Shown here one piece after another: positions 2,045-46,990 of a stretch of DNA of 64,000 bases. Made by a program: the position numbers and the translations under genes. This stretch comes from Ignavibacteriota bacterium (GTDB lineage Bacteria; Bacteroidota; Ignavibacteria; Palsa-1295). Location: NCBI GenBank assembly GCA_963736195.1, contig CAVTNP010000004.1, positions 1,229,153-1,293,152 on the forward strand, given 5' to 3'. Position 1 is the stretch's first letter. Each line of letters begins with the position of its first letter. Below the pieces are notes generated by a model. That model had not been told where the DNA came from. It worked only from the letters and a program-made list of their open reading frames with translations, and did no database searches.

Positions 2045-4198
2045 ATGTTCCCGAAACGGCTTCTTGTACTCACCCTCTTCGCCGCGCTCGCGGTGATGCC
2101 GCCGTGTGTTCTGCGTGCGCAGTGGGTGCAAACGAATGGGCCTTCGATGGGAAGTGTGGGTTGTTTTGTTTCGAGCGGTACGAATCTCTTTGCAGGAACT
2201 TACGGCGGTGGTGTTTTCCGTTCCACTGATTCAGGGATAACGTGGAAGGCAATTAATAATGGCTTGGCAAAGGGACTTGGAGCAGCGCTTATAATGAGTG
2301 GGAATTATCTATTCGAGGGGTCGAATGATGGGATCGTCTCCCGTTCTAGTGACACTGGAGCAAGCTGGACCGCCTGTCCGATGGGATTGGGGTCGCCTAT
2401 TTATTCATTTGCGGTTAACGGGCAGTATCTCTTTGCAGCGACTTTCGGCAACGGTATCTTTCGCTCCTCCGATAACGGCATGAGCTGGATAGCATTGAAT
2501 ACTGGATTTGATTATGAGCGTATTGAGGCACTTGCTAATCTAGGCTCATATATATTCGCCGCAACGGAAGAGGACGGTATCCTCCGTTCCTCGGACAATG
2601 GTACAACTTGGAGTCACGGCTCTGGGACATATCCCCCATATTACACGATTGCCGTGAGCGGCACGAGCCTGTTTACAGGGACTTCTCCGTCAGGCAGTCA
2701 ATCTGAAATTTCTGGCATATATCGCTCAACGGACAGTGGTTCAAGCTGGATCCAAGTTTGGAATGGTTCGATATCCCCCAATTTAAGGTCACTCACGATC
2801 CAAGCAATCGCCGCATTTGGGACAACGCTTTTCGCAAGCTCCGTGGGCACGGGGATTTACCGATCAACAAATAATGGTGTAAATTGGTATCCGGATACGA
2901 GTGGTTTGCCAGACCATTATATTGTTGACTTTGGCCAGATTGGTTCAAATCTGTTTGCCGGATCCGAATATAATGGAGTCTTTCGATCCATTGACAGCGG
3001 TGCTACCTGGACCGAAAGCAATAAGAATATGGCAAATGCTGATGTTCTTGCTCTTGTCCAGACTGACACTTTCCTTTTTGCGGGTACTGAATATCATGGA
3101 GTTTTTCGTTCTTCAGATGATGGTGAAACTTGGGCCGAGGTGGATAGCGGCTTGACGAGAGGATTTGTAGATGCTTTTGCAGCGCGTGGCGCGACTATCT
3201 TCGCGGCTACTGACGTTGGCGTCTTCGCTTCCTCGGACAACGGTTCAATATGGGTTGCACGCGAAAAAGGCTTGCCTGAACTTCGAGTTTATTCTCTTGC
3301 TGTTAATGACTCCTTTGTCTTTGCGGGAACTGATGGTGGAGGTGTCTTTCGTTCCTCCGACGATGGCAATACTTGGGCGCAAGTTAATAGTGGATTGACC
3401 GACGACACAGTATACTGTCTTGCTATCTATGGGCCATATCTGTTTGCAGGTACCTACAGCACTGACTTCTATACCGGCGGTAGCACACCGGGAGTCTTCC
3501 GTTCGAGCAATAACGGCGCAAGTTGGGTGCAATTTAGTACCGCACTGGTTGATAATAATATATACTCCCTATCTGCTCTCGGCAGATATGTATTCGCCGG
3601 AGGAAACGGAGTTTGCCGCTCCAGCGACAGCGGCGTGCATTGGGAGAGCGTTGACAGCGGATTGACTTATCTTGGGGTGGTCACCCTCAGTGTGGTTGGA
3701 TCTAATCTCTTTGTTGGAACTAACGCCGAGGGCATTTTCCATTCTACTGACAGCGGTTCGACCTGGACACCATTCGATAGTGGTCTCATAAATGAATATG
3801 TATATGCACTTGTGGCAAGCAAAACTAATCTCTTTGCCGGGACGCTTGGTGCAGGCGTTCTCCGCAGTCCCTTGTCTGAATTAGGAATCAGTTCAGTGGC
3901 CCAAACTCCGACGAACAATCCGGCCATTCGTTCCTACCCCAATCCCTTCTCTCAATCCACTGAAATCACCTTCACCTCGCAAGCTGCCGGGTATGCGGAG
4001 GTATCCATCGTGAATATGCTTGGCGTGGAGGTTGCGCGGCTGTTTTCGGGGGAGTTGGGTGCGGGTGAGCACAGCTTTATGTGGGGCAAGCCCACAGGCT
4101 TGCCCGATGGGGCGTATGAGTGCCTCGTCCGCATGAATGGGCAGATGGATGATCGCTCATCCACTGTGCAAACGCTGCCGGTGGTGTTGATGCGTTGA
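2045..4198 (+). CDS. Secreted BNR/Asp-box repeat beta-propeller protein with T9SS C-terminal sorting domain
   Basis: N-terminal signal peptide. More than 12 repeats of ~45 aa are present, each containing S-x-D-x-G-x-T-W (for example GVFRSSDDGNTW, IFRSSDNGMSW). The C-terminus YPNPFSQSTEITFTSQ...ECLVRMNGQMDDRSSTVQTLPVVLMR is a typical type A T9SS CTD. Confidence 0.7.
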   Translation: MFPKRLLVLTLFAALAVMPPCVLRAQWVQTNGPSMGSVGCFVSSGTNLFAGTYGGGVFRSTDSGITWKAINNGLAKGLGAALIMSGNYLFEGSNDGIVSRSSDTGASWTACPMGLGSPIYSFAVNGQYLFAATFGNGIFRSSDNGMSWIALNTGFDYERIEALANLGSYIFAATEEDGILRSSDNGTTWSHGSGTYPPYYTIAVSGTSLFTGTSPSGSQSEISGIYRSTDSGSSWIQVWNGSISPNLRSLTIQAIAAFGTTLFASSVGTGIYRSTNNGVNWYPDTSGLPDHYIVDFGQIGSNLFAGSEYNGVFRSIDSGATWTESNKNMANADVLALVQTDTFLFAGTEYHGVFRSSDDGETWAEVDSGLTRGFVDAFAARGATIFAATDVGVFASSDNGSIWVAREKGLPELRVYSLAVNDSFVFAGTDGGGVFRSSDDGNTWAQVNSGLTDDTVYCLAIYGPYLFAGTYSTDFYTGGSTPGVFRSSNNGASWVQFSTALVDNNIYSLSALGRYVFAGGNGVCRSSDSGVHWESVDSGLTYLGVVTLSVVGSNLFVGTNAEGIFHSTDSGSTWTPFDSGLINEYVYALVASKTNLFAGTLGAGVLRSPLSELGISSVAQTPTNNPAIRSYPNPFSQSTEITFTSQAAGYAEVSIVNMLGVEVARLFSGELGAGEHSFMWGKPTGLPDGAYECLVRMNGQMDDRSSTVQTLPVVLMR

Positions 4199-13629: not shown

Positions 13630-15231
13630 CTACCGATCCAAGATAAATGTTCCTTGAGATGGGAACGGCCCACGAAGGCGATAGTCACCAAGCATATACT
13701 CATCCACGAAGGTGTAGCGTGCGTTCAATCCGGTGTATTGCCAGATTTCATAGGGCTTTTGCATCGCTTCCATAGGATGGCTATCGATTAGGTCCGGCTG
13801 GCCGAGTGCAATATACACCCGGCCTCGGTCAGTCTTCCATCCAGGTTGATAACTGGAACCGAAATGAGCATTTGCGTAAGCGACGCGCGTGTAGAATACT
13901 TCCATTGGCCGATTTACGTCCTGCGCCGATGATTGTGATCCGTTTGCTGACATGAACTTTCGATTCCAAAACGCGATGATCGCACTACGCTTCTGTTTTG
14001 GGGTACGCGCAGCTAGAAGTGAGTCCTCCTCGGTGGGATCAGCGATAAACCGCAATTGCTCAATTGCTTGATCGAGGTCTTTTGCAGTTTGCGGAATTCC
14101 TCTGGCAATGCGAGCCTGGATGTTTCGATCCACTTTGAGCATAGCTCGGCCATCGAGAGCCGCAGGATCGGTCAGGGTTGTATCGGCAACAGAGGGAAGG
14201 ATATACATGCGTACGGTATAATGGCTCTGCCAAAGTTCATCAAATCGTAGTGGGATCAGAAGCGGCATTTCAGGAATCATTGTTGGTGCCGTCATGCCAA
14301 CCGAGCCGGCGTGGACGGTTCTGAACGTTGAAGAAGATTTCTCGATCACAATCGATTGCTTGGATGCTTCCTCATCGGTCGGTTGTTCCTTCTGCATGAT
14401 TTCAGCTACCACTCCAAGTGTTGAATCGGCAGGCAGATCATACAACTCCGCAAACAAACCCGCATCATGGTTGATACTTCCATCCTGGATGGCACCAGTC
14501 TCGACTATTTCTCCGCCCATTTCAGTGCCGCCGGCGCTTTCAGCCCATTCCGACACATCGGAACCGATCGCCGGAATGATTCTCATACCCTTTCGATCGC
14601 GATAGATCAGAAGATCGCTTACAGAAGTTGTATTCGGCGGGAAGCTCCTTAAAATAAAGGTGACCGTTGTATCAAAATCGCGCCGCGATGACAGATCGTG
14701 TACGTTGAGGCTCATTTCTAATTTTCTGGACGGATATTCACCTCCAGGCAACATCTGAAATGAGATTTGTTCCGCATCTGCTCGCATCGCCGACTTCATC
14801 GCGGGCGATGAAGCATTCATCGTGGGCGATGAAGATGAGGATGCGAACGCTCCGTGCGAAACGCGCGCCTTATGCTCGTCCAATGTTTCGAGCACATTAT
14901 ACGATTCATATCGATCGATCAGAATGCGTTCGCCATCGCGAATGGTGATTCGCACAGCATAATCTGCCACATACTTATCAACCGCATACAGAAACTCTAA
15001 TGAAGCATAGGGCACAGCGATGTAAAGATCCATTCGAGTGCTATCGAAGGTTTTTCCGGAGTCTTCGAAACTGGATCCTTTGAACGCCAGCAGATCGAAC
15101 ATTGCGCGCGGCACTTTAGCTGTCAATTCTTCGCTTCGGAATTCAGATGGCATTCTTCTTTGTGCGATCAGAGATGCCGCATTGCACAAAAAGAGAACTG
15201 CAAGGAATATGCTGAGGAGCCTGCGGGTCAT
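13630..15231 (-). CDS. GWxTD domain-containing secreted protein
   Basis: Signal peptide MTRRLLSIFLAVLFLCNAASLIAQ (Met at 15231). The C-terminal motif GWKTDRGRVYIALGQPD matches the GWxTD family signature. It contains an in-frame palindromic-repeat insertion (SSSSPTMNASSPAMKS). Confidence 0.65.
   Translation of the reverse strand: MTRRLLSIFLAVLFLCNAASLIAQRRMPSEFRSEELTAKVPRAMFDLLAFKGSSFEDSGKTFDSTRMDLYIAVPYASLEFLYAVDKYVADYAVRITIRDGERILIDRYESYNVLETLDEHKARVSHGAFASSSSSPTMNASSPAMKSAMRADAEQISFQMLPGGEYPSRKLEMSLNVHDLSSRRDFDTTVTFILRSFPPNTTSVSDLLIYRDRKGMRIIPAIGSDVSEWAESAGGTEMGGEIVETGAIQDGSINHDAGLFAELYDLPADSTLGVVAEIMQKEQPTDEEASKQSIVIEKSSSTFRTVHAGSVGMTAPTMIPEMPLLIPLRFDELWQSHYTVRMYILPSVADTTLTDPAALDGRAMLKVDRNIQARIARGIPQTAKDLDQAIEQLRFIADPTEEDSLLAARTPKQKRSAIIAFWNRKFMSANGSQSSAQDVNRPMEVFYTRVAYANAHFGSSYQPGWKTDRGRVYIALGQPDLIDSHPMEAMQKPYEIWQYTGLNARYTFVDEYMLGDYRLRGPFPSQGTFILDR
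14786..14836. repeat. Palindromic 18-mer family copies (TTCATCG-N4-CGATGAA) inside GWxTD gene
   Basis: cttcatcgcgggcgatgaagca ttcatcgtgggcgatgaaga. Translated on the minus strand as SSPTMNASSPAMK. Confidence 0.8.
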
Positions 15232-15235
15232 CGCT

Positions 15236-16804
15236 TCAGATAAGCACAGCTTCGGCACATAGCTCATCGTTCTCGACGCCTGTGAAGCGAGCTCCGATCA
15301 TCTCTCCGAGCGCAAGCTCCCTGTTAGACCTTACGCGAACTTCGCCATCGACTTCCGGCGCCTGTGTGGCGGTGCGACCGTAATAGACTCCGCGATCATC
15401 AAGGTCTTTACGTTCGATCAATATTTTGTCTATGGAACCAAGCTTCGTCGCAGATTCTACCTTTAAGAGATTCTTCGCAAGAAATATCTCCGCCTGAATA
15501 TCATACAGACGCGCTTGCCGACGGCGCTTCTCCTCTGCCGGCACCGGATCGCCCAGCGGATGCGCCGTCGTGCCATCCTCTTGACTGTACGTAAAAACAC
15601 CGAGATGGTCAAACTGCATTTGCTCTACGAATTCCTCCAGTTCCTCAAATTCGCGATCGCCCTCTGCAGGATAGCCTGTGATCAGCGTCGTGCGCAGAGC
15701 AATACCAGGAACGCGATCGCGAATTGTGCCGATCAGTTCTTCGGTGGCCCGGCGGGTAATGCCGCGGCGCATCGATTTCAACACAGCAGTCGATGCATGC
15801 TGTACCGGTATATCCAAATACGGAACGATCTTTTCCTCGCTCGCCATGACATCCAGCAGATCGAGTGGGAATTGTGCCGGATACGCGTACATCAGGCGTA
15901 TCCATTCGACGCCCTTTACTTTTGCCAATCTCGAAGCAAGCTTTGCGATACTTCGTTCGCCATAAAGGTCGAGACCATAGTTGGTGGAGTCCTGCGCTAT
16001 GAGAACGATCTCTTTCACGCCCCTCATCGTCGGCGATGAGGTCATCGTCGGCGATGAAATCGTCGGCGATGAGTTTGATGCGAGCATCATGGCCTCGAAT
16101 TCCAGCTCTTCGATGCTACGCGAACGATGGCTGCCGCGCATGATAGGGATAGCACAAAACGAACACGGATGGTCACAGCCTTCCGAGATCTTCAAGTATG
16201 CATAATGGTGCGGCGTCGAAAGCTTCCGCTCCAAAAGTAACGAGTCGTGGGAACCGCAATGCATCGCCGACGATGCTTCGTTACTCGTTACTCGTCCACT
16301 CGTTACTTGTTGGAGTATTTGTTCGAAGTCCTGCGTGCCGAAATAGCGATCCACGACGGGCCCAGCGTTTGCGCTGAACTCCGCCTCCAACTCACTGCGA
16401 TAACGTTCCGATAGACATCCAGCCACATAGACGTTTTTTACAACGCCAGCTTTTTTCAGTTCCAGAGCTTCTAAGATCGCGCTGATGGATTCTTTTTTTG
16501 CATGGTCGATGAATCCGCACGTGTTGATGATCACCGTCTCTGCCGGTGATGCATCCGTTTCCTGGGTGATCTCATCGCTGACGATCTCATCGCTGACGAT
16601 CTCATCGCCGACGATCTCATCGCTGACGATGAAGCCACGCCGCGTAAGCATACCGGCGATCACTTCGGAATCCACCGTGTTCTTCTCACAGCCTAACGAA
16701 ACCACGCAGACCTTGCCTAACGCCCTTGGGCGGTCGTTAATGGCCATCGTGGGGTCTTTAGGCGCCGTCACTGGCAGCGTAGAGTTTGTTGCGCTTATCT
16801 TCAT
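15236..16804 (-). CDS. rimO: Ribosomal protein S12 methylthiotransferase RimO (radical SAM MTTase), carrying three in-frame low-complexity insertions
   Basis: VVSLGCEKNTVDSEVIAGML...INTCGFIDHAKKESI is the MTTase N-domain. The radical SAM core is ISEGCDHPCSFCAIP. A C-terminal TRAM-like region follows. Inserts are VSDEIVGDEIVSDEIVSDEI, VTSGRVTSNEASSAMH and SSPTISSPTMTSSPTM, about 80 extra residues relative to a canonical ~440 aa RimO. Confidence 0.8.
   Translation of the reverse strand: MKISATNSTLPVTAPKDPTMAINDRPRALGKVCVVSLGCEKNTVDSEVIAGMLTRRGFIVSDEIVGDEIVSDEIVSDEITQETDASPAETVIINTCGFIDHAKKESISAILEALELKKAGVVKNVYVAGCLSERYRSELEAEFSANAGPVVDRYFGTQDFEQILQQVTSGRVTSNEASSAMHCGSHDSLLLERKLSTPHHYAYLKISEGCDHPCSFCAIPIMRGSHRSRSIEELEFEAMMLASNSSPTISSPTMTSSPTMRGVKEIVLIAQDSTNYGLDLYGERSIAKLASRLAKVKGVEWIRLMYAYPAQFPLDLLDVMASEEKIVPYLDIPVQHASTAVLKSMRRGITRRATEELIGTIRDRVPGIALRTTLITGYPAEGDREFEELEEFVEQMQFDHLGVFTYSQEDGTTAHPLGDPVPAEEKRRRQARLYDIQAEIFLAKNLLKVESATKLGSIDKILIERKDLDDRGVYYGRTATQAPEVDGEVRVRSNRELALGEMIGARFTGVENDELCAEAVLI
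16020..16080. repeat. Palindromic 18-mer family copies inside rimO (site 1)
   Basis: ctcatcgtcggcgatgag gtcatcgtcggcgatgaa atcgtcggcgatgag. Translated SSPTISSPTMTSSPTM. Confidence 0.8.
16255..16310. repeat. Palindrome gcatcgccgacgatgc plus tandem cgttactcg repeats inside rimO (site 2)
   Basis: gcatcgccgacgatgc ttcgttactcgttactcgtccactcgttact. Translated VTSGRVTSNEASSAMH. Confidence 0.7.
16553..16633. repeat. 15-nt tandem repeat x5 of the palindromic family inside rimO (site 3)
   Basis: gatctcatcgctgac repeated in tandem (catcgctgacgatg is a near-palindrome). Translated IVSDE/IVGDE x5. Confidence 0.85.
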
Positions 16805-16929: not shown

Positions 16930-19236
16930 ATGTTGCATCGAAGACTTTTTAGAGACACACGGGGGATCTTTATAGCCGCCGCGCTTTTCGCGCTCATCCT
17001 GCCCGACAAGCTCAGGTCTCAAAATGGGGTCGTGATCAACGAGATAATGTATGCGCCTAAAAGTCCTGAGCCAGAATGGATCGAACTTTTCAACACAGAT
17101 AGTATTGCCATTGACCTGACCAATTGGGAAATTGCAACGGCCTCCAAATCGGGAGTTCTTCCTGACATTACGATAGCTGCTGGAGGTTACCTCGTTATTA
17201 CCAAGGATTCGCTTGAATTAATCACACTCCGGCCCGGGAATTATGCTCCATCGTCGGCGATGGAACTCTCGCAAATCGCGTTGCCGGATCTTGACAATAT
17301 CGGCTCAGAAGTCATACTTCGAAATGCAGCACTTCAAACAATTGATAGCTTAGCCTACCTTCCTTCGTGGGGTGGTTCGACGGGCAGTTCACTCGAAAGG
17401 CGAAATGCGCTTACATCGGCAACTGTCGTAAGCAATTGGGGCACATCCAAAGCAGCGACAGGGGCAACGCCCGGCGTCCGCAACAGTCTTGCTGGGCCAG
17501 ACTCCACACCGGTCATTATTGCTCGGCACCCGCTTGATATAGTTCTGAACGAGGTCATGTTTGCTCCGGTCAGCCCTGAGCCAGAATGGATCGAACTGCT
17601 AAACACGACCCTTGATACGATCAATATAGCAGGGTGGATTCTTTCCGTGCAAGGACACCCGTCCGTTACAATTCCAGCGACAAATACCGTTGTTCCTCCT
17701 GATTCTCTGATCGTCATTTCCGGCAATGATACTGAACTGGCTGCCATTCGAAAGGTGGACATTCAGCGCATCGTTCGTATCAACTTACCTGATCTGAGCA
17801 ATAGTGGCTCGACGCTTGCGCTCCACGATCCAGCCGGGAATTTTATAGACAGTTCCTATTATGAAGGGAACTGGATCAAGGCCGATGGCTTTTCGATCGA
17901 ACGCATCGATCCATACGTCATTGGTTACGAATCCTCGAATTGGAGTACCTGCAAGGATACGAGCGGCTCGACAATTCTTCGCCCAAATTCCGTCCGCATA
18001 CGGAACTATGATCTCGCAGTGACAGATGTTAGCGTATCCGACACGTCTGCTACGGTTACGATCGTCAACATGGGCCTTGATACGATCCATCGCACCGAGG
18101 TTGGTCTTCAAATAGGCTTAGCATCGTCGGTCTCATCGCCGGCGATGCAGGTGCAGTTCACTCCAGTCATTCAGCAATTATCACCCGGTCTTGCAAGTCG
18201 TGACTCTATGCGGGTTTTTTTCGATGTTCCGCAAAACCTCTATGGCCTATTTCCTGCAACGGCCTATATTTTGGATTCTTTAGATGAGAATCCCTTGAAC
18301 GATACGCTTCGGTTTAGTATTGCGCCACTCATCCCGGAAGATAGCCTGGTTATCAATGAGATCATGTTCGATCCGCAGCCAAACGGTTGTGAATGGATCG
18401 AGCTGTATAACCTTTCGGATAAGTGGATTTCGATGGATTCGACGCGGCTACTCACCGGAGAATCACGTCCGGGCGAATATACGCATGTGATCCCACCACT
18501 GTTGATAGCACCCGATTCATTCGGAATTGTCACCGCTAACGATTCCATTTACTCCATCTACCCAGCGTTGGCTGGGCGGAATAGCATAGCGTCCGTTGGC
18601 GCATCTTCGCTCGATCTTGGCAAAGATTCCAGCTCCGTCGTTTTTCAAGCTCTGGATTCTTCCACAATTGATTCCGTTCTCTATCTTAAAACATGGCAGC
18701 AAAGTATTCTTAAAAAGACGTTCGTGGGAATTTCTCTGGAGCGCAAGAACCCGCGCGGCGGGAGCAATGATCCACAAAACTGGCAGGCATCGCTGGATAG
18801 CGCTACCCCACTGGCGCAAAACTCCGTCGATACATCTTCAACAGCAACAACGCCTCCGCTCGGAACCTTATTTACCGCAAGCTTTTCACCGAATCCATTT
18901 TCGCCGGATGGGGATGGCTTTCAAGATCTTAGCATACTCACGGTCCAAACTGGGAATAGCAGCCAATGGGCTATGCAGGTGCAGATATTCGATGCGGGCG
19001 GAAGAATGGTGCGCTCGCTGGTAAATGCGGTATCGGTCTATCAAACCGCAACAGTAACATTCGATGGAAAACGCGATAACGGTCAACCGCTTCCGCTGGG
19101 ATTGTACACAGCTTTAATCCAGCTTACGTCTGCATCGTCGGCTATGAAATCTTCATCGTCGGCTATGAACGCAAGTCCCGAACAGAGCATGAGGCAAGAG
19201 ACGGGCATCGCGATCGCAGGCAAGCGTGCCCACTAA
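16930..19236 (+). CDS. Secreted lamin-tail-domain (LTD) repeat protein with T9SS type B-like C-terminal domain
   Basis: Three LTD cores: VVINEIMYAPKSPEPEWIELFNT, VLNEVMFAPVSPEPEWIELLNT and LVINEIMFDPQPNGCEWIELYN. The C-terminal FSPNPFSPDGDGFQD resembles the FSPNGDGxND type B sorting motif. In-frame palindromic-repeat insertions give SSVSSPAMQ and SASSAMKSSSSAMNASP. Confidence 0.7.
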   Translation: MLHRRLFRDTRGIFIAAALFALILPDKLRSQNGVVINEIMYAPKSPEPEWIELFNTDSIAIDLTNWEIATASKSGVLPDITIAAGGYLVITKDSLELITLRPGNYAPSSAMELSQIALPDLDNIGSEVILRNAALQTIDSLAYLPSWGGSTGSSLERRNALTSATVVSNWGTSKAATGATPGVRNSLAGPDSTPVIIARHPLDIVLNEVMFAPVSPEPEWIELLNTTLDTINIAGWILSVQGHPSVTIPATNTVVPPDSLIVISGNDTELAAIRKVDIQRIVRINLPDLSNSGSTLALHDPAGNFIDSSYYEGNWIKADGFSIERIDPYVIGYESSNWSTCKDTSGSTILRPNSVRIRNYDLAVTDVSVSDTSATVTIVNMGLDTIHRTEVGLQIGLASSVSSPAMQVQFTPVIQQLSPGLASRDSMRVFFDVPQNLYGLFPATAYILDSLDENPLNDTLRFSIAPLIPEDSLVINEIMFDPQPNGCEWIELYNLSDKWISMDSTRLLTGESRPGEYTHVIPPLLIAPDSFGIVTANDSIYSIYPALAGRNSIASVGASSLDLGKDSSSVVFQALDSSTIDSVLYLKTWQQSILKKTFVGISLERKNPRGGSNDPQNWQASLDSATPLAQNSVDTSSTATTPPLGTLFTASFSPNPFSPDGDGFQDLSILTVQTGNSSQWAMQVQIFDAGGRMVRSLVNAVSVYQTATVTFDGKRDNGQPLPLGLYTALIQLTSASSAMKSSSSAMNASPEQSMRQETGIAIAGKRAH
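18121..18150. repeat. Palindromic family copy inside LTD gene (site 1)
   Basis: gcatcgtcggtctcatcgccggcgatgcagg. Translated ASSVSSPAMQ. Confidence 0.6.
19131..19172. repeat. Palindromic family copies inside LTD gene (site 2)
   Basis: gcatcgtcggctatgaaatcttcatcgtcggctatgaacgc. Translated SASSAMKSSSSAMNA. Confidence 0.6.
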
Positions 19237-19254: not shown

Positions 19255-19316
19255 TCACTTAAAAGGATGCCGGTGAGCATCGATGCCGGTAAGCATCAAT
19301 GCTGGTGCATCGGCAC
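19255..19316. repeat. Intergenic degenerate copies of the CATCG...CGATG palindrome family
   Basis: gatgccggtgagcatcgatgccggtaagcatcaatgctggtgcatcggcacgg. Direct repeats of gcatcRatgccggt units are immediately upstream of the bidirectional terminator. Confidence 0.6.
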
Positions 19317-19321
19317 GGATA

Positions 19322-19357
19322 AACCCTTTATAGGAATTGAGAAGCCTATAAAGGGTT
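19322..19357. terminator. Bidirectional rho-independent terminator hairpin between convergent genes
   Basis: Perfect 13-bp stem aaccctttatagg / cctataaagggtt with a 10-nt loop. It is flanked by A/T on both sides, between the + gene ending at 19236 and the - gene ending at 19362. Confidence 0.7.
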
Positions 19358-19361
19358 AGGA

Positions 19362-22300
19362 TCACTTAGCAAGGATAACGCGCTCAGAGCATACCATCCC
19401 ACCACCCTGAAGCCGGATGAAATAAGTGCCCTGCTGCAACCCATGAGCATCGAGGATGATACGATAGGTGCCCTGGCTGAGTGCAGCATCGACGAGTGTT
19501 CGGACGTTTTGTCCGAGTGCGTTAAAGAGCTCCATCTTCACGTTCATCGTGGGCGATGAACCATTCATCGTGGGCGATGAAGCGTTCATCGTGTTGGAAG
19601 CATTCCCGCTGCTGCTCACAGTTGTCGAGTTAATCGTTGGCGATGAAGCGTTCATCGTGGGCGATGCAGCATTCATCGTTGGCGATGCAGGAACTGTATA
19701 TTGGATGAGGGTGGTGCCGTTGAAGGGGTTAGGGATAGCAGGAGCAATGGAAAGGATCTGCGGTTTGGTACCATTGCCAACGATTGTTGCACAGGAATCC
19801 ATGAAGATAACCCTTCCACCATTGAGAAGGCCGGCAGGCGCAGGCAGCGTAATGGAGTAATTGGTATCGCCGTTGGCATCAATGCCATCGGAGACGATGG
19901 GCATCCCGACGACGTCGTTGCCTCCATTATACAAGACCTGCTCGCCGCAAGGATCGGTTAGGACGTTGATATCGGCCTCCTGCACACCGACACTCTTCGC
20001 GGCCTGGAACAGCAGATATCCAATGGTGTCGTGCAGTTGCAGATCGGTCAAGGCTGGGCCTTGTCCACTGATGGTGTACGTTCTGTTCCCGTCGTTAGCA
20101 TCAGAGATATTCCACCCGGCAGCGACATTGGTGCCGGCGGGGTTTACATTGGCGGTTCCGGTAAAGGTCAGGAGGTTACTTCCGGTGATTTGGAAGGTAA
20201 ACTGGAACTGATTGAGATTCTTTTTGCTAAGTGGGAACGCATCGGTGGAATCGAGATAAATGGGAACCTGGAATGCGGCATTAGAAGAGTCGATGCCGGT
20301 TGCATTCATGGCCAAGTTTTGGCGATAGATAGCGATGGGCAGGGTATCGGTATGGAGCGCCTGCACGGATGTGTCAGTGGATTGCCTTCCCCAAACATCG
20401 GACGCTAATAGGGTTCCGGTCGCGGAGGTTTTTGGATCGATCAAACCGAGATCAAACGTAAGAGAAATGGCAGGTGAATCTATTCTGGAATAGTTGGACA
20501 GGTTTTGGGTGAGCGTATCCCAGACGCGATAGATACCCCGGTCATGCCTTCGCAGATCGGTGACCGTAACGGCGATGGAATCGCAGACTATTGAATCGTA
20601 TTTGAGATCGACAAAAGCCGGAGTGGAATCGATCGGGAGGTAATAGGTCCAGCAGAAGGTATCGCCGGCGCAAAGCTCATTTCCGGCGCCATCGACGGCT
20701 TGCCAGCAGATCTTTGCCGGGAGCGTATCGTGCGCAAGGGTATCGGTTACGAACAAGATCACGCTGTCGAATTTGGTGTAGCGCGGGAGTCCTACGCCTG
20801 GGAACGTATCTTCCTTGATGGTATGAATGGAGCTAATGGTACCGTGGTACAGCATGGAATAATTATGGACGTTTGAGAACCAGATCGAGTCAATGCCGTC
20901 GTCATAATTGATACTATCGTGAATATCGGAAAAGAAAACCTTGATGGTGCCGGAAGAGTCTAAGACATAGATAGTGTCATGCGGGCAAAACGTATCTGCG
21001 AGACTATCCTTCACGACTCTTTGCTGATTATTAAAGTTACCCGCACAATCCCATGCTTGGAGCGTAAAACCTGCACTCGCAAACGTATCCCTGATCTGAA
21101 TTCGGAACAAGAATGTAGCTGCGCAGTTAGGTATGGGGCGAAGGCTGCACGTTGTATCGTTAATGCTGTCGATCAAATACAGCGAAGGGTTCGCAATGGG
21201 CCAGCAATTCTGGATCCTCGAGACCAGCACGGAATCCACTCCAGTATCCCAGGGCCTGTCGTCGGTAGCGGAGACGGACCATCCACCTGTCTGTGTCTGG
21301 ACAACCACGAGCGGCGGAACAGTATCGGGGATCGAGCAATAACGGATAGTGTCATACGTCGGAACATTACCAGCAGAATCGATCGCTTCAATAATGATAT
21401 TCCCGCCAAGCGACGACATAGAATCGGTGACGCAAACCGTAAACGTATCCTCTTTCATCCCAAGCGTGAGAGGATGCAACTGCGTGAAATTCATATTCGA
21501 AGAATCGACCACAATGACGGAGCGAAGCCCACCATCGTGCTGAAGACCGGGGAGCGGCTCCTCAATCGAATCCGTAATTACCCATTCACTGCACTGGAAT
21601 TCACATGGCGCTCCCGAAGTATCCGTGTAATTCTGATCATATCGTTTCAGGAGCCGGAAACGAGGCGGAAGCGTATCGAATGGCACCGGAGGCGAACAAC
21701 TTTGAAAGCAGAATGTGTCGTAGCTAACGTTGGCCGCGCAATCCGTGAATGTGAAATAGACGCAGGAAGAAAGCAGGGAATCGACTTGCGTCACAGTTAC
21801 CTTGACGCTATCGGTGTGGTCGCATTGCGGGTAAGTCGCAATGGTAACTTTATCGGCATTCGGAGGAACCACCTTCCATGTGATGGAATCTATGCCCTGA
21901 TCAATCGCTCGGCTATCATAAACGGAATCGACGAATGTCGTATAATTCCCACAATGATTGGTCGCTCCAACGCCGACATGCTTCGTATGGCGTGGGGCTA
22001 AAAGATCCCTTTGCTGACAATCCACGATGATCGGGCAAATATATGGGCTCGAGCTACAGGTGGTAGGACCAACCCCATTTGCACCAACGGAAAACGCAAT
22101 ATCATATATTGAATCGGTGGAGCAATTCGTGAGAACACTCTGAAGAACCGTATCTTCCCATGTAATAGAAGCTGAGCTTTGTCCAAGAATCGAGCCTAAC
22201 CCTCCTGCGCCTGTAAGCTTGTGGTTCTGTGTACTTACGAGAGCAGGCGGAGGATTGGGAGACTCGATCATCACGGGGAGATTTGTGGAAGCGCCCGTGG

Positions 22301-37908: not shown

Positions 37909-37998
37909 GTAGTGGATAACGGATAGTGGATAGTGAAACCGAGCTCTCATCGGATTCTTTTCCTTCGTTATCCACTACAATCTATTCACTATCCACTA
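37909..37998. promoter_or_regulatory. Cluster of four DnaA-box-like 9-mers in the promoter/5' region of the downstream ABC permease gene
   Basis: agtggataa (37911-37919) and agtggatag (37926-34) are TGTGGATAA-like. ttatccact (37968-76) and ctatccact (37989-97) are TTATCCACA-like. Two point inward and two outward, with 7/9 to 8/9 matches to the consensus. Confidence 0.4.
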
Positions 37999-44488: not shown

Positions 44489-45496
44489 TTATTCCTTCAC
44501 CAATTTAACGGATTGCGCTTCACCATACGCGGTTTGGATGCGCGCGAAGTACGTGCCCGAGGGCAGCCCTGCCAGCGAAAGCGGAACCGATTTATTCCCC
44601 GGCTCGAACAATCCTTCAAACCCGGACCCCGGACCCGGACCCCGGTTCCCGGAACCCGAAACAAGATGCCCCAACACATCGAATAGTTCTATTTTCACAT
44701 ACGCCTCTTTGCTGATGCCAAACGATATTACCGTTCCCTCGCCCGAGGGGTTGGGATACGCGGCGGCGTTGGAGATAATGCCCGGCTGTGGCGTTTCGCT
44801 CACGCTCTCATATAGAAGATGCTTTGCAAGTAGCGTGTCGAGGCCAAGACCAAGCGAAGCGATGGATGGTATGGTGGTATCGAGCGGCACCGACGTGTCA
44901 TTTAGCCAGTCTTCGTATTGAGATGCCCTGGCTCCTTTTATCTCATTTTCTATAAATGGCGTATCGCAGGTAGTGTTCTGAACTAACCATTCATCTATTG
45001 CAAGGGCTTTATTCAGATTAATCCAACCCTGCTCTTCACCACCGGTATCATTCGGGTCGGCAACCTGCATCGCTTCAACACACGCACAGAAGTATTCTGG
45101 GTTCGTCGTATTGAGATAGAGCACCGATTCGAGCCATAGCTGGGCCTGTAGCCAAAGAGAAGTGTCTGACACCTCAAGTGTTTGACGGCTGGCACTGAAC
45201 TCCTGAAACATGGATGGTGCGAAATAATCATTATAGCAAGTTTCGATAAATTTCATGGTTGTATCGTAACATTGCTGCACCTGTCCCGGGCCAGTATAGT
45301 TCCATATCTTAAAGCGCAAGGAATCGCAAGACTCTGTGTCATCTAAGACTTTCCCCATCTCTTCCTCTACCGCCGAGAGATTCCCGCGACCATGGTGTGC
45401 CGGCGCGTTGCCAATCCCTTGCGACTGCGCGAACGAGGAACCGCTCTGCTGCATCAGCAAGAGAAGAAGGGCTATCGTTCTTAATTGATGTACCAT
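44489..45496 (-). CDS. Secreted protein with T9SS C-terminal sorting domain (tandem paralog 1)
   Basis: Signal MVHQLRTIALLLLLMQQSGSSFAQ. The C-terminal ~110 aa AYPNPSGEGTVISFGISKEAYVKIELFDVLGH...SGTYFARIQTAYGEAQSVKLVKE is nearly identical to the 45553-46683 product. It carries an extra SGNRGPGPGSG low-complexity insert. Confidence 0.6.
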   Translation of the reverse strand: MVHQLRTIALLLLLMQQSGSSFAQSQGIGNAPAHHGRGNLSAVEEEMGKVLDDTESCDSLRFKIWNYTGPGQVQQCYDTTMKFIETCYNDYFAPSMFQEFSASRQTLEVSDTSLWLQAQLWLESVLYLNTTNPEYFCACVEAMQVADPNDTGGEEQGWINLNKALAIDEWLVQNTTCDTPFIENEIKGARASQYEDWLNDTSVPLDTTIPSIASLGLGLDTLLAKHLLYESVSETPQPGIISNAAAYPNPSGEGTVISFGISKEAYVKIELFDVLGHLVSGSGNRGPGPGSGFEGLFEPGNKSVPLSLAGLPSGTYFARIQTAYGEAQSVKLVKE

Positions 45497-46860: not shown

Positions 46861-46990
46861 AGGCACCCTCTTGGGAAAAGATGAAATATGAAAGATGAAA
46901 GATGAAACGGGGAGGGTTCGGGGAAAAGATGAAATATGAGAGATGAAAGATGAATCCGCCGCGGCGGAGAAAGATGAAATGAGGAAGGGC
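46861..46990. repeat. A-rich short direct-repeat array (AAGATGAAA units, about 8 copies) in divergent intergenic region
   Basis: gaaaagatgaaatatgaaagatgaaagatgaaacgggg...ggaaaagatgaaatatgagagatgaaagatgaatccg...gagaaagatgaaatgagg. It has a two-block structure, each block ending in a G-rich run. Confidence 0.6.

Follow-up and report, generated by a model that had tools for sequence, protein, structure and literature searches.

In-frame copies of an 18-nt hairpin in rimO and adjacent genes of an Ignavibacteriota bacterium

The rimO gene of an Ignavibacteriota bacterium, located on the reverse strand (positions 15236-16804) of the 64-kb stretch of contig CAVTNP010000004.1 that we have analysed (the window), is interrupted in frame by several insertions that are built from copies of an 18-nt hairpin. 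We consider it likely, though well short of certain, that this gene has been colonised repeatedly by a hairpin that spreads by short-range and structure-dependent copying and whose new copies then pass through a filter of selection.

The 18-nt hairpin and its insertion into genes

Pooling the 66 exact-core copies from ten family-bearing loci defines the unit as an 18-nt hairpin, NNCATCG-CC[C/G]A-CGATGN'N', with a 7-bp stem and a 4-nt loop. Five of the stem pairs (CATCG/CGATG) are invariant. The first outer pair is of the Watson-Crick type (T-A, G-C or C-G) in 54/66 copies, a level matched by none of 5000 shuffles, and the second in 35/66 (matched by 3 of 5000); the third and fourth outer positions pair at chance level. 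The loop is both conserved and asymmetric, reading CCCA in 28/66 copies and CCGA in 22/66. The units fold as single-stranded DNA, with energies of -5.8 to -7.0 kcal/mol (-10.8 kcal/mol for a 24-nt variant). When one mismatch at most is allowed, the pattern CATCG-N4-CGATG has 29 matches in the window against 4.4 expected, and this number was reached by 0 of 100 shuffles. The 13-24 kb part of the window has no match in Rfam at E values up to 1. The family is present in coding and in intergenic DNA (the latter at 7448-7545 of L140, one of the loci of related bacteria with which the window was compared). Since copies are read in two phases, occur in both orientations and are also intergenic, what has been conserved is the DNA or its single-stranded form rather than the encoded peptide. 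A subtype with a GCGA loop does not occur outside the 3' part of rimO, where different genomes have it at two different sites; this distribution suggests copying across a few hundred bases.

The limits of the insertions can be read by setting orthologs with an empty site beside those with a filled one. Single insertions are exactly 18 nt long (six codons; occasionally 24 nt) and each of them is itself a perfect palindrome. Examples are CCATCGTCGGCGATGGAA, between gct and ctc, in the LTD gene of the window; TCATCGCCGACGATGCTT and CCATCGTCGGCGATGGAT in L002; GCATCGCCGACGATGCTA in L140; GCATCGGCGACGATGCAT in the RimO gene of L002; and, in the RimO gene of L141, a palindrome of 24 nt. There is no target-site duplication at any of seven clean insertion junctions. 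The inserts with several units are direct tandem arrays: neighbouring copies share their orientation in 18 cases and are opposed in 5, and their spacings (18 nt in 10 cases, 21 in five, 15 in four and 30 in four) are multiples of 3 in 24/27. Such array growth is what is expected from replication slippage.

The two phases in which copies are found read SS[P/S/A][T/A]M and I[V/A][G/D/S]D[E/A]; the third, phase 0, would give HRRR followed by TGA in stems of the TCATCG type, or else Cys, and not one copy in any called gene uses it (P ~2.6e-5 for the ~26 sites with stop-free stem types). The initial annotation had recognised a single palindromic family translated in different registers. There are indeed two registers, and there are also two orientations, of which it made no mention. 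It had further taken the repeated preservation of frame as a sign of strong selection on frame and/or a targeted insertion mechanism. Frame preservation, however, is a property of the 18-nt unit and of the array steps that survive, so that it provides no evidence for targeting at the codon level. Selection is visible elsewhere, in the missing third phase and in the loop, linker and terminus sites of the surviving copies, and a form of targeting does exist at the scale of a ~6-kb locus, which the initial annotation had not recognised.

RimO and its inserts

The reading frame begins with ATG and is uninterrupted over 522 amino acids (aa). Its identification as RimO, and as a RimO much longer than the usual ~440 aa, is borne out. 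The TIGR01125 equivalog matches with 408.7 bits (cutoff 356.95), the MiaB and MtaB equivalogs score far under their respective cutoffs, and Pfam finds the three domains of RimO (UPF0004, Radical_SAM and TRAM_2). The closest solved structure is the RimO of T. maritima (PDB 4jc0, E=6e-76). Compared with its 102 closest orthologs (median 443 aa) the protein is the longest, and in the 102-sequence alignment its cysteines C39/C96/C130 and C210/C214/C217 (CxxxCxxC) occupy invariant columns, all 84 invariant residues being kept. An AlphaFold model made with 102 sequences has a mean per-residue confidence (pLDDT) of 82.8 and a predicted TM score (pTM) of 0.84; Foldseek aligns it to 4jc0_A with E=6.9e-36 and a target-normalised TM of 0.88, thus the fold is that of RimO. 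Disruption of the catalytic segments, which would have indicated a pseudogene, is not seen: the six cysteines and the other invariant residues are all in place. Judging from this conservation and from the modelled fold, the rimO of the window is an ordinary, intact and probably functional gene. To describe it as essential-type was an overstatement, as rimO is dispensable in E. coli.

The three in-frame repeat inserts that had been reported (here ins1 to ins3) are real, appearing as clean gaps against 4jc0 and orthologs, although their exact limits had to be revised (Table 1) and a fourth, ins4, had been overlooked. Ins1 consists of one full hairpin unit, TTCATCGTCAGCGATGAG, and then three slipped 15-nt units, ATCGTC[A/G]GCGATGAG, which are read in phase 2 as FIVSDE-IVGDE-IVSDE-IVSDE. 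Tandem Repeats Finder (TRF) gives it a period of 15 and 4.2 copies with 95% matches, and not the five units, (IVSDE)x5, of the earlier description. It is a gap in 4jc0 and in all orthologs, and its pLDDT is 37-55. Ins2 holds a single 18-nt unit, GCATCGTCGGCGATGCAT (16259-16276), read in phase 1 as ASSAMH and oriented opposite to ins3. The latter is made of three tandem units of TCATCGCCGACGATG (15+18+18 nt, by TRF), also in phase 1; it corresponds to a clean gap of 17 aa in 4jc0 and most orthologs (pLDDT 53-66), and ortholog P0002 has an insert at this site too. Ins4 is a decayed copy that lies at the site of an intact one in L002/P0007 (GCATCGGCGACGATGCAT, ASATMH), with 14/18 bases identical.

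The ages of these inserts differ, since the units of ins1 and ins3 are near-identical and ins4 has decayed; by this measure of divergence ins1 and ins3 are young and ins4, with its four mismatches, is older. The excess length had been put down to the three inserts, and this is only partly so: of the 79 extra residues, ins1-ins3 cover only ~48-54. The others belong to ins4, to a 5-aa SANAG insert and to a ~19-aa N-terminal extension, which may simply reflect the choice of start codon (an alternative start at M20 would yield 503 aa). The SANAG insertion (16361-16375) is a small hairpin in its own right, AGCG-CAAA-CGCT, with a sequence unlike that of the main family; it is missing in nearly all orthologs, and what P0009 has at this position is an insert unrelated to it.

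In the AlphaFold model the low-pLDDT stretches coincide with the inserts, all of which lie between secondary-structure elements. Ins1 is in the loop leading from helix 40-55 to strand 90-95, within the N-terminal methylthiotransferase (MTTase) domain; the inter-domain linker holds ins2; ins3 falls within the radical-SAM core, where it separates helix 231-243 from strand 265-270; and ins4 is at the junction of the last long core helix and the first TRAM strand. Of the placement suggested earlier (between the MTTase domain and the core, and in the core/TRAM linker), the first part is thus right for ins2, but ins1 and ins3 are inside their domains and only ins4 is at the core/TRAM boundary. The accompanying suggestion that the inserts occupy tolerant loops agrees with both the ortholog and the structure mapping. 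From the (beta/alpha) topology, the helix-to-strand loops that carry inserts would be expected to point away from the strand ends that bind the cluster.

Inserts derived from the family are present in 10/102 of the nearest RimO orthologs, and all ten of these are among the closest relatives. They occupy at least eight sites, all of them loops, linkers or the C-terminus, and phase and orientation often differ. The inter-domain linker, for example, is occupied by SSAM in phase 1 in the window, SSPTM in phase 1 in L141, IVGDA in phase 2 in L002 and IAEDA in phase 2 in L006. These four configurations of phase and orientation imply independent insertions; along with the differing ages, they bear out the proposal that there were several separate insertion events. 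The four-fold sites of the RimO, LTD and GWxTD orthologs are near saturation (identity 0.3-0.5). Copy turnover is high, because almost no copies are common to the genomes; the orthologous copies that are shared are too few for a statistic against the synonymous background. The divergence of this lineage is strongly gene-specific: between the window and the L002/L006 genomes, Lnt is 83-84% identical and RimO 64-65% (70-71% over aligned columns), and in the same comparison the neighbouring GlyK is 54% identical. A third and unrelated family of in-frame palindromes was encountered in the TRAM-domain loop of RimO (alignment column 553) in L004 (7140-7225) and L009. Its sequences are CCCCTCTCCC-TGCT-GGGAGAGGGG and CCCTGCTCCCAGCAGGG, read ...TPTPLPAGRGALNPLLPAGRRG..., and the insert has a length of 81 nt in L004 (P0014) and of 30 nt in L009.

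Distribution of the hairpins

All 13 exact copies of this family (family 1) in the window lie between 14.5 and 20 kb, and the other 58.5 kb have none. They form a block of ~6 kb over four adjacent genes, which encode a GWxTD-domain protein, RimO, an LTD/FlgD_ig protein and a 1398-aa protein with a type IX secretion system (T9SS) tail. Counted as independent sites, 11/12 are inside 5.5 of the 64 kb (P ~2e-11). A similar picture emerges from the relatives, for which RimO-centred loci were compared with control regions around the single-copy Lnt gene on contigs of the same bacteria. The RimO locus of the L002 genome has 9 family 1 copies in 13.4 kb and that of the L006 genome 8 in 13.4 kb, against 0 in 21.7 kb around Lnt in each. 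In L140, 11/14 copies are within 4 kb around LTD and RimO.

Relatives that lack family 1 have a second one (family 2), GGATGA-NCGN-TCATCC, read DDRSS/DERSS, which shares the 7+4+7 layout and the loops of family 1. Of its six stem pairs, three are those of family 1 and the other three differ in both bases; a variant reads GCATGA...TCATGC. In the L005 genome this family has 7 copies in the 13.3 kb of the RimO locus, one of them inside RimO, and 1 in the 21.7 kb of the Lnt control. Its sites are at 4148-4161 of the window, L005:2635-10418, L004:5871 and 10030, L008:6006 and 8020, and L010:3992-4121.

Two simple accounts of this clustering were considered. Import of the block from a repeat-rich donor was rejected, since per-gene identities are continuous across the hairpin-bearing genes and the adjacent hairpin-free ones. 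Tolerance of insertions is insufficient as the sole cause, since the other T9SS-tailed secreted proteins of the window carry 0 copies.

Family 1 also forms tight clusters in three metagenome contigs that lack the genes of the block, L094, L098 (8 copies in 850 nt) and L099. A metagenome scan with a tandem motif pattern gave 106 loci, and among the 80 of them that were classified these three were the only true members. The three-N pattern was too permissive, and most of the classified loci proved to be unrelated two-copy duplications or a 20-nt satellite. The satellite, GATGGCATCGG[C/A]TGCGATGC, is repeated for tens of units in L066, L053, L082, L084, L088 and L104; it is open in six frames and unrelated to the hairpins. 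A scan of viral contigs with the tandem motif pattern gave eight matches, all of them coding-level chance in high-GC contigs. Among 5.8 billion proteins there was no match to the SSPTM/SSAM peptides joined end to end, a result probably due to the composition filter of HMMER.

Table 1. Repeat features of the window, with their positions
Feature	Positions	Strand	Description
ins1, rimO	16571-16633	-	63 nt; aa 58-78; peptide FIVSDEIVGDEIVSDEIVSDE
ins2, rimO	16250-16300	-	aa 169-185; peptide SGRVTSNEASSAMHCGS; pLDDT 53-70
Heptamer tandem TCGTTAC x4.7, rimO	16278-16311	-	TRF; imperfect; coding strand VTS...VTS; abuts the ins2 hairpin
ins3, rimO	16022-16072	-	51 nt; aa 245-261; peptide SSPTISSPTMTSSPTMR
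ins4, rimO	15440-15457	-	decayed 18-nt copy GAATCTGCGACGAAGCTT; ESATKL; aa 450-455; 6-aa insertion relative to orthologs
Two 21-nt tandem units, GWxTD-domain gene (13630-15267)	14795-14834	-	read SSSSPTMNASSPAMK
Single 18-nt insertion, LTD/FlgD_ig gene (16930-19236)	17247-17265	+	perfect palindrome TCCATCG-TCGG-CGATGGA; PSSAME; lacking in four orthologs
36-nt insertion, LTD gene	18118-18153	+	two units, one degenerate; read LASSVSSPAMQV
Two 21-nt units near the C-terminus, LTD gene	19129-19169	+	read SSAMKSSSSAMN
Period-16 array, convergent gap between LTD and 1398-aa genes	19266-19307	.	GATGCCGGTGAGCATC x2.6; unit junctions form GCATCGATGC
Two period-21 arrays, T9SS-tailed 1398-aa gene	19543-19690 (19543-19593, 19632-19690)	-	five units; (N[AG]SSPTM)n
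Single copy of family 2, C-terminus of Sortilin-like gene	4148-4161	+	GGATGA-TCGC-TCATCC; DDRSS

Among the features outside rimO, the two arrays of the 1398-aa gene are situated just upstream of its C-terminal sorting domain. The period-16 array, whose period is no multiple of 3, is the only non-coding array of the block in the window and is possibly related to the hairpin family. It is followed in the same convergent gap (19266-19352) by a long perfect hairpin, AAACCCTTTATAGG...CCTATAAAGGGTT, which is probably a bidirectional terminator. The equivalent gap in L140 holds three family copies with a 30-nt period. The LTD protein of L002 (2743-5859) and L008 (2842-5877) has an extra module of 268 aa (804 nt), a duplicated LTD-containing repeat that is missing in the window, L140 and L141.

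Heptamer repeats occur elsewhere in the window, at 37910-37998, 46877-46954 and 44620-44658. An intergenic array of TAGTGGA x3.7 faces an inverted one of TATCCAC x4.3, two arrays of AAAGATG x4.4 lie in the divergent gap upstream of lnt, and CCCGGAC x5.6 is near 44.6 kb. Beside lnt in the L006 genome (L142:6906-9603), there is a pair of genes, missing in the window, for a fused N6/N4 methyltransferase-Mrr_cat-NA-iREase1 protein and a SIR2_2 protein; it looks like a small defence island.

Possible origins and known systems

If the hairpin does spread by a short-range, structure-dependent copy-paste process, the likeliest route to a new copy would be template switching promoted by the hairpin, or gene conversion among neighbouring copies, in the course of replication or repair. 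Copies then grow into direct tandem arrays, as slippage would have it, and purifying selection would purge those in the stop or Arg-rich phase and those at structurally intolerant positions. Short-range copying would explain the local restriction, the absence of target-site duplications, the arrays and the loops that are flipped at identical sites; it would likewise explain the genome-specific stem subtypes (as concerted evolution) and why there is no transposase nearby. The load may be heaviest in rimO because this gene is at the centre of the block and tolerates loop insertions, as its dispensability in model bacteria would suggest.

Several considerations weigh against this proposal. The copying step is deduced from finished sequences, the data containing no polymorphic or intermediate state, and the junction microhomology that template switching usually needs could not be demonstrated. 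It is possible that a trans-acting enzyme is encoded outside the 64-kb window. Perfect palindromes have been kept across saturated divergence in the LTD gene of L002/L008 and at the rimO C-terminus of L009/L141, which hints at selection or conversion and not at neutral decay. The control comprises 58 kb of the window and one 21.7-kb region for each of three relatives, and it is likely that further clusters exist elsewhere, given the unrelated loci at which L094, L098 and L099 have the family. Finally, the activity of this RimO, aspartate methylthiolation of S12, is only a prediction from its sequence and model.

The main rival is a miniature non-autonomous element of the kind known as repetitive extragenic palindromes (REPs) and their paired form, REPINs, moved by a trans-acting hairpin transposase of the HUH type (REP-associated tyrosine transposase, RAYT, or IS200-like) that is encoded elsewhere. 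IS200/IS605-type transposition makes no target-site duplication, in keeping with the junctions described above, and the existence of two stem families with one architecture resembles the co-evolution of an enzyme with its substrate. Moreover, the stable single-stranded hairpin, its conserved asymmetric loop and its compensatory stem variation are all as in REPs and REPINs (PMC3116915); intragenic REPs have been documented, and CGTC-type REPs are present in Chlorobi and Bacteroidetes (PMC3733652). Nevertheless, we think this origin unlikely. The GTAG/CGTC tag is seen in only 2 of 132 flank inspections (GTAG 0, CGTC 2) and no other flank tag is conserved; the copies show no extragenic preference, most being inside called genes, and they are arranged in direct tandems rather than head-to-head dimers (18 against 5). 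Comparison of the ~48 open reading frames of the 64-kb window with Pfam revealed no transposase, Y1/HUH and RAYT types included. The family is also missing from ~100 kb of control sequence in three genomes, which is hard to square with a diffusible transposase.

Alternatively, the hairpins could be a selected cis-acting array at the rimO-LTD junction, offering either sites for a dimeric protein (half-sites of 6-7 bp with a 4-bp spacer) or cruciform/hairpin sites, with the rimO insertions as a tolerated cost of site density. Such a function could account for the place of the cluster, conserved in at least four genomes despite copy turnover, for the other stem family filling the same block in L005, for orthologous copies that are perfect palindromes despite saturated synonymous divergence, and for the arrays in the convergent intergenic spacer of L140 and possibly of the window. 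We still regard it as rather improbable, for base-pairing explains the conserved, asymmetric loop and the covariation of the outer stem better than half-site recognition does, the family clusters at unrelated loci on other contigs, and one rimO copy is free to decay. Among the unannotated neighbours of the block, compared with Pfam at E values up to 0.1, there is no candidate enzyme or binding protein, and the 64-kb window contains no partition gene, no origin or terminus marker and no switch in GC skew.

The remaining explanations can be effectively excluded. That the assembly or the sequencing created the repeats, or that rimO is a decaying pseudogene, is very hard to credit. The source is a metagenome-assembled genome, but the family recurs in the syntenic block of assemblies that were made independently, in different projects and with different assemblers (MFD long-read bins, a palsa bin and JGI contigs), and the uninterrupted frame, the retained invariant residues and the confident fold speak against a pseudogene. 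Selection at the protein level, for Ser/Thr-rich or acidic flexible linkers of benefit to RimO and its neighbours, has practically nothing to recommend it beyond the fact that the inserts are hydrophilic and reside in loops and linkers. One and the same palindrome yields SSPTM, SSAM, IVGDE or IADDA according to phase and orientation, the family is intergenic as well, and neither palindromy nor stem covariation has any meaning for a protein.

A bolder extension of the local-copying proposal, which we offer with considerable reserve and think has only a modest chance of being correct, is that the 18-nt hairpin is the unit of a self-propagating and locus-restricted system that has persisted at the rimO/LTD block across a Kapaibacteria subclade, its stems co-evolving through compensatory change (CATCG/CGATG in one family, GGATGA/TCATCC in the other). 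If so, either a dedicated structure-specific machinery would be working in cis over a few kb or the hairpin array would have a chromosomal function under selection; no insertional DNA unit described in bacteria would be smaller than this hairpin, and its spread would be a new mode of local protein-length evolution. Should the local restriction hold genome-wide, short-range copying or a cis function would be called for beyond the models based on RAYT/REPIN, slippage or MITEs (transposable elements of the miniature inverted-repeat type). On the practical side, annotators are warned that the excess length of housekeeping proteins in these lineages is genuine, and the inserts provide a natural insertion-tolerance map for RimO-type radical-SAM enzymes, with at least eight permissive sites.

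How does this family compare with the known repeats? The arrays in rimO (15 and 18 nt) and in its neighbours (21 nt) behave as in-frame minisatellites, like other intragenic tandem repeats (variable-number tandem repeats), but slippage alone cannot seed singletons of an identical 18-nt palindrome at many unrelated sites and genes. The MITEs, defined by terminal inverted repeats, a length of 50-500 bp and target-site duplications, are no better a match for an element of 18 nt in total that leaves no duplication. REPs are similar in being short stem-loops with compensatory stem changes and occasional intragenic copies (PMC3733652, PMC3116915). Intragenic REPs are known, sometimes twice per gene, and CGTC REPs without a dedicated transposase have been reported in Chlorobi/Bacteroidetes (PMC3733652). 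They differ in having an unpaired GTAG/CGTC tag, a 3-nt tail and a length of 20-40 bp, and in being mostly extragenic and mostly head-to-head dimers. In cyanobacteria, HIP1 (highly iterated palindrome, GCGATCGC) is a hyper-abundant palindrome of coding sequences, and no role in a peptide, an RNA or a promoter accounts for its upkeep (PMC5861425). However, insertion plays no part in the origin of this 8-mer, which is enriched in all three frames and genome-wide (PMC5861425). The hairpins of the window are, in contrast, discrete 18-nt insertions, local and limited to two phases. Closest in size are the SDRs (small dispersed repeats; Elhai et al. 2008, Genome Res 18:1484) of heterocystous cyanobacteria. 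These repeats reportedly are ~21-27 nt long, apparently mobile, possibly intragenic and linked to tandem heptamers. The heptamer link recalls the way in which ins2 abuts the TCGTTAC tract; the SDRs differ in sequence and phylum and are said to be dispersed over the genome.

The most alike in their working are the Rickettsia palindromic elements (RPEs; Ogata et al. 2000, 2002), which are described, in the accounts given in PMC10969869 and PMC3733652, as in-frame palindromic repeats in many unrelated and apparently functional genes. Like them, the hairpins in rimO and its neighbours are palindromic, compatible with the fold of the protein, sometimes several to a gene, and in frame at permissive sites. 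According to those accounts RPEs are ~100-150 bp long, encode a conserved peptide and are spread genome-wide in an obligate intracellular host, whereas the present family has 18 nt, two phases, both orientations and tandem arrays, and does not reach beyond a few-kb locus in its free-living hosts of the Kapaibacteria type. In-frame colonisation of genes by palindromic repeats has hitherto been a matter mainly of Rickettsia and of scattered intragenic REPs. The novelty here, relative to these in-frame palindromic repeats, is the 18-nt unit and its conserved locus restriction; the case extends the picture to a unit of only six codons, to tandem arrays inside an enzyme and to a syntenic confinement that endures while both the copies and the stem are replaced.

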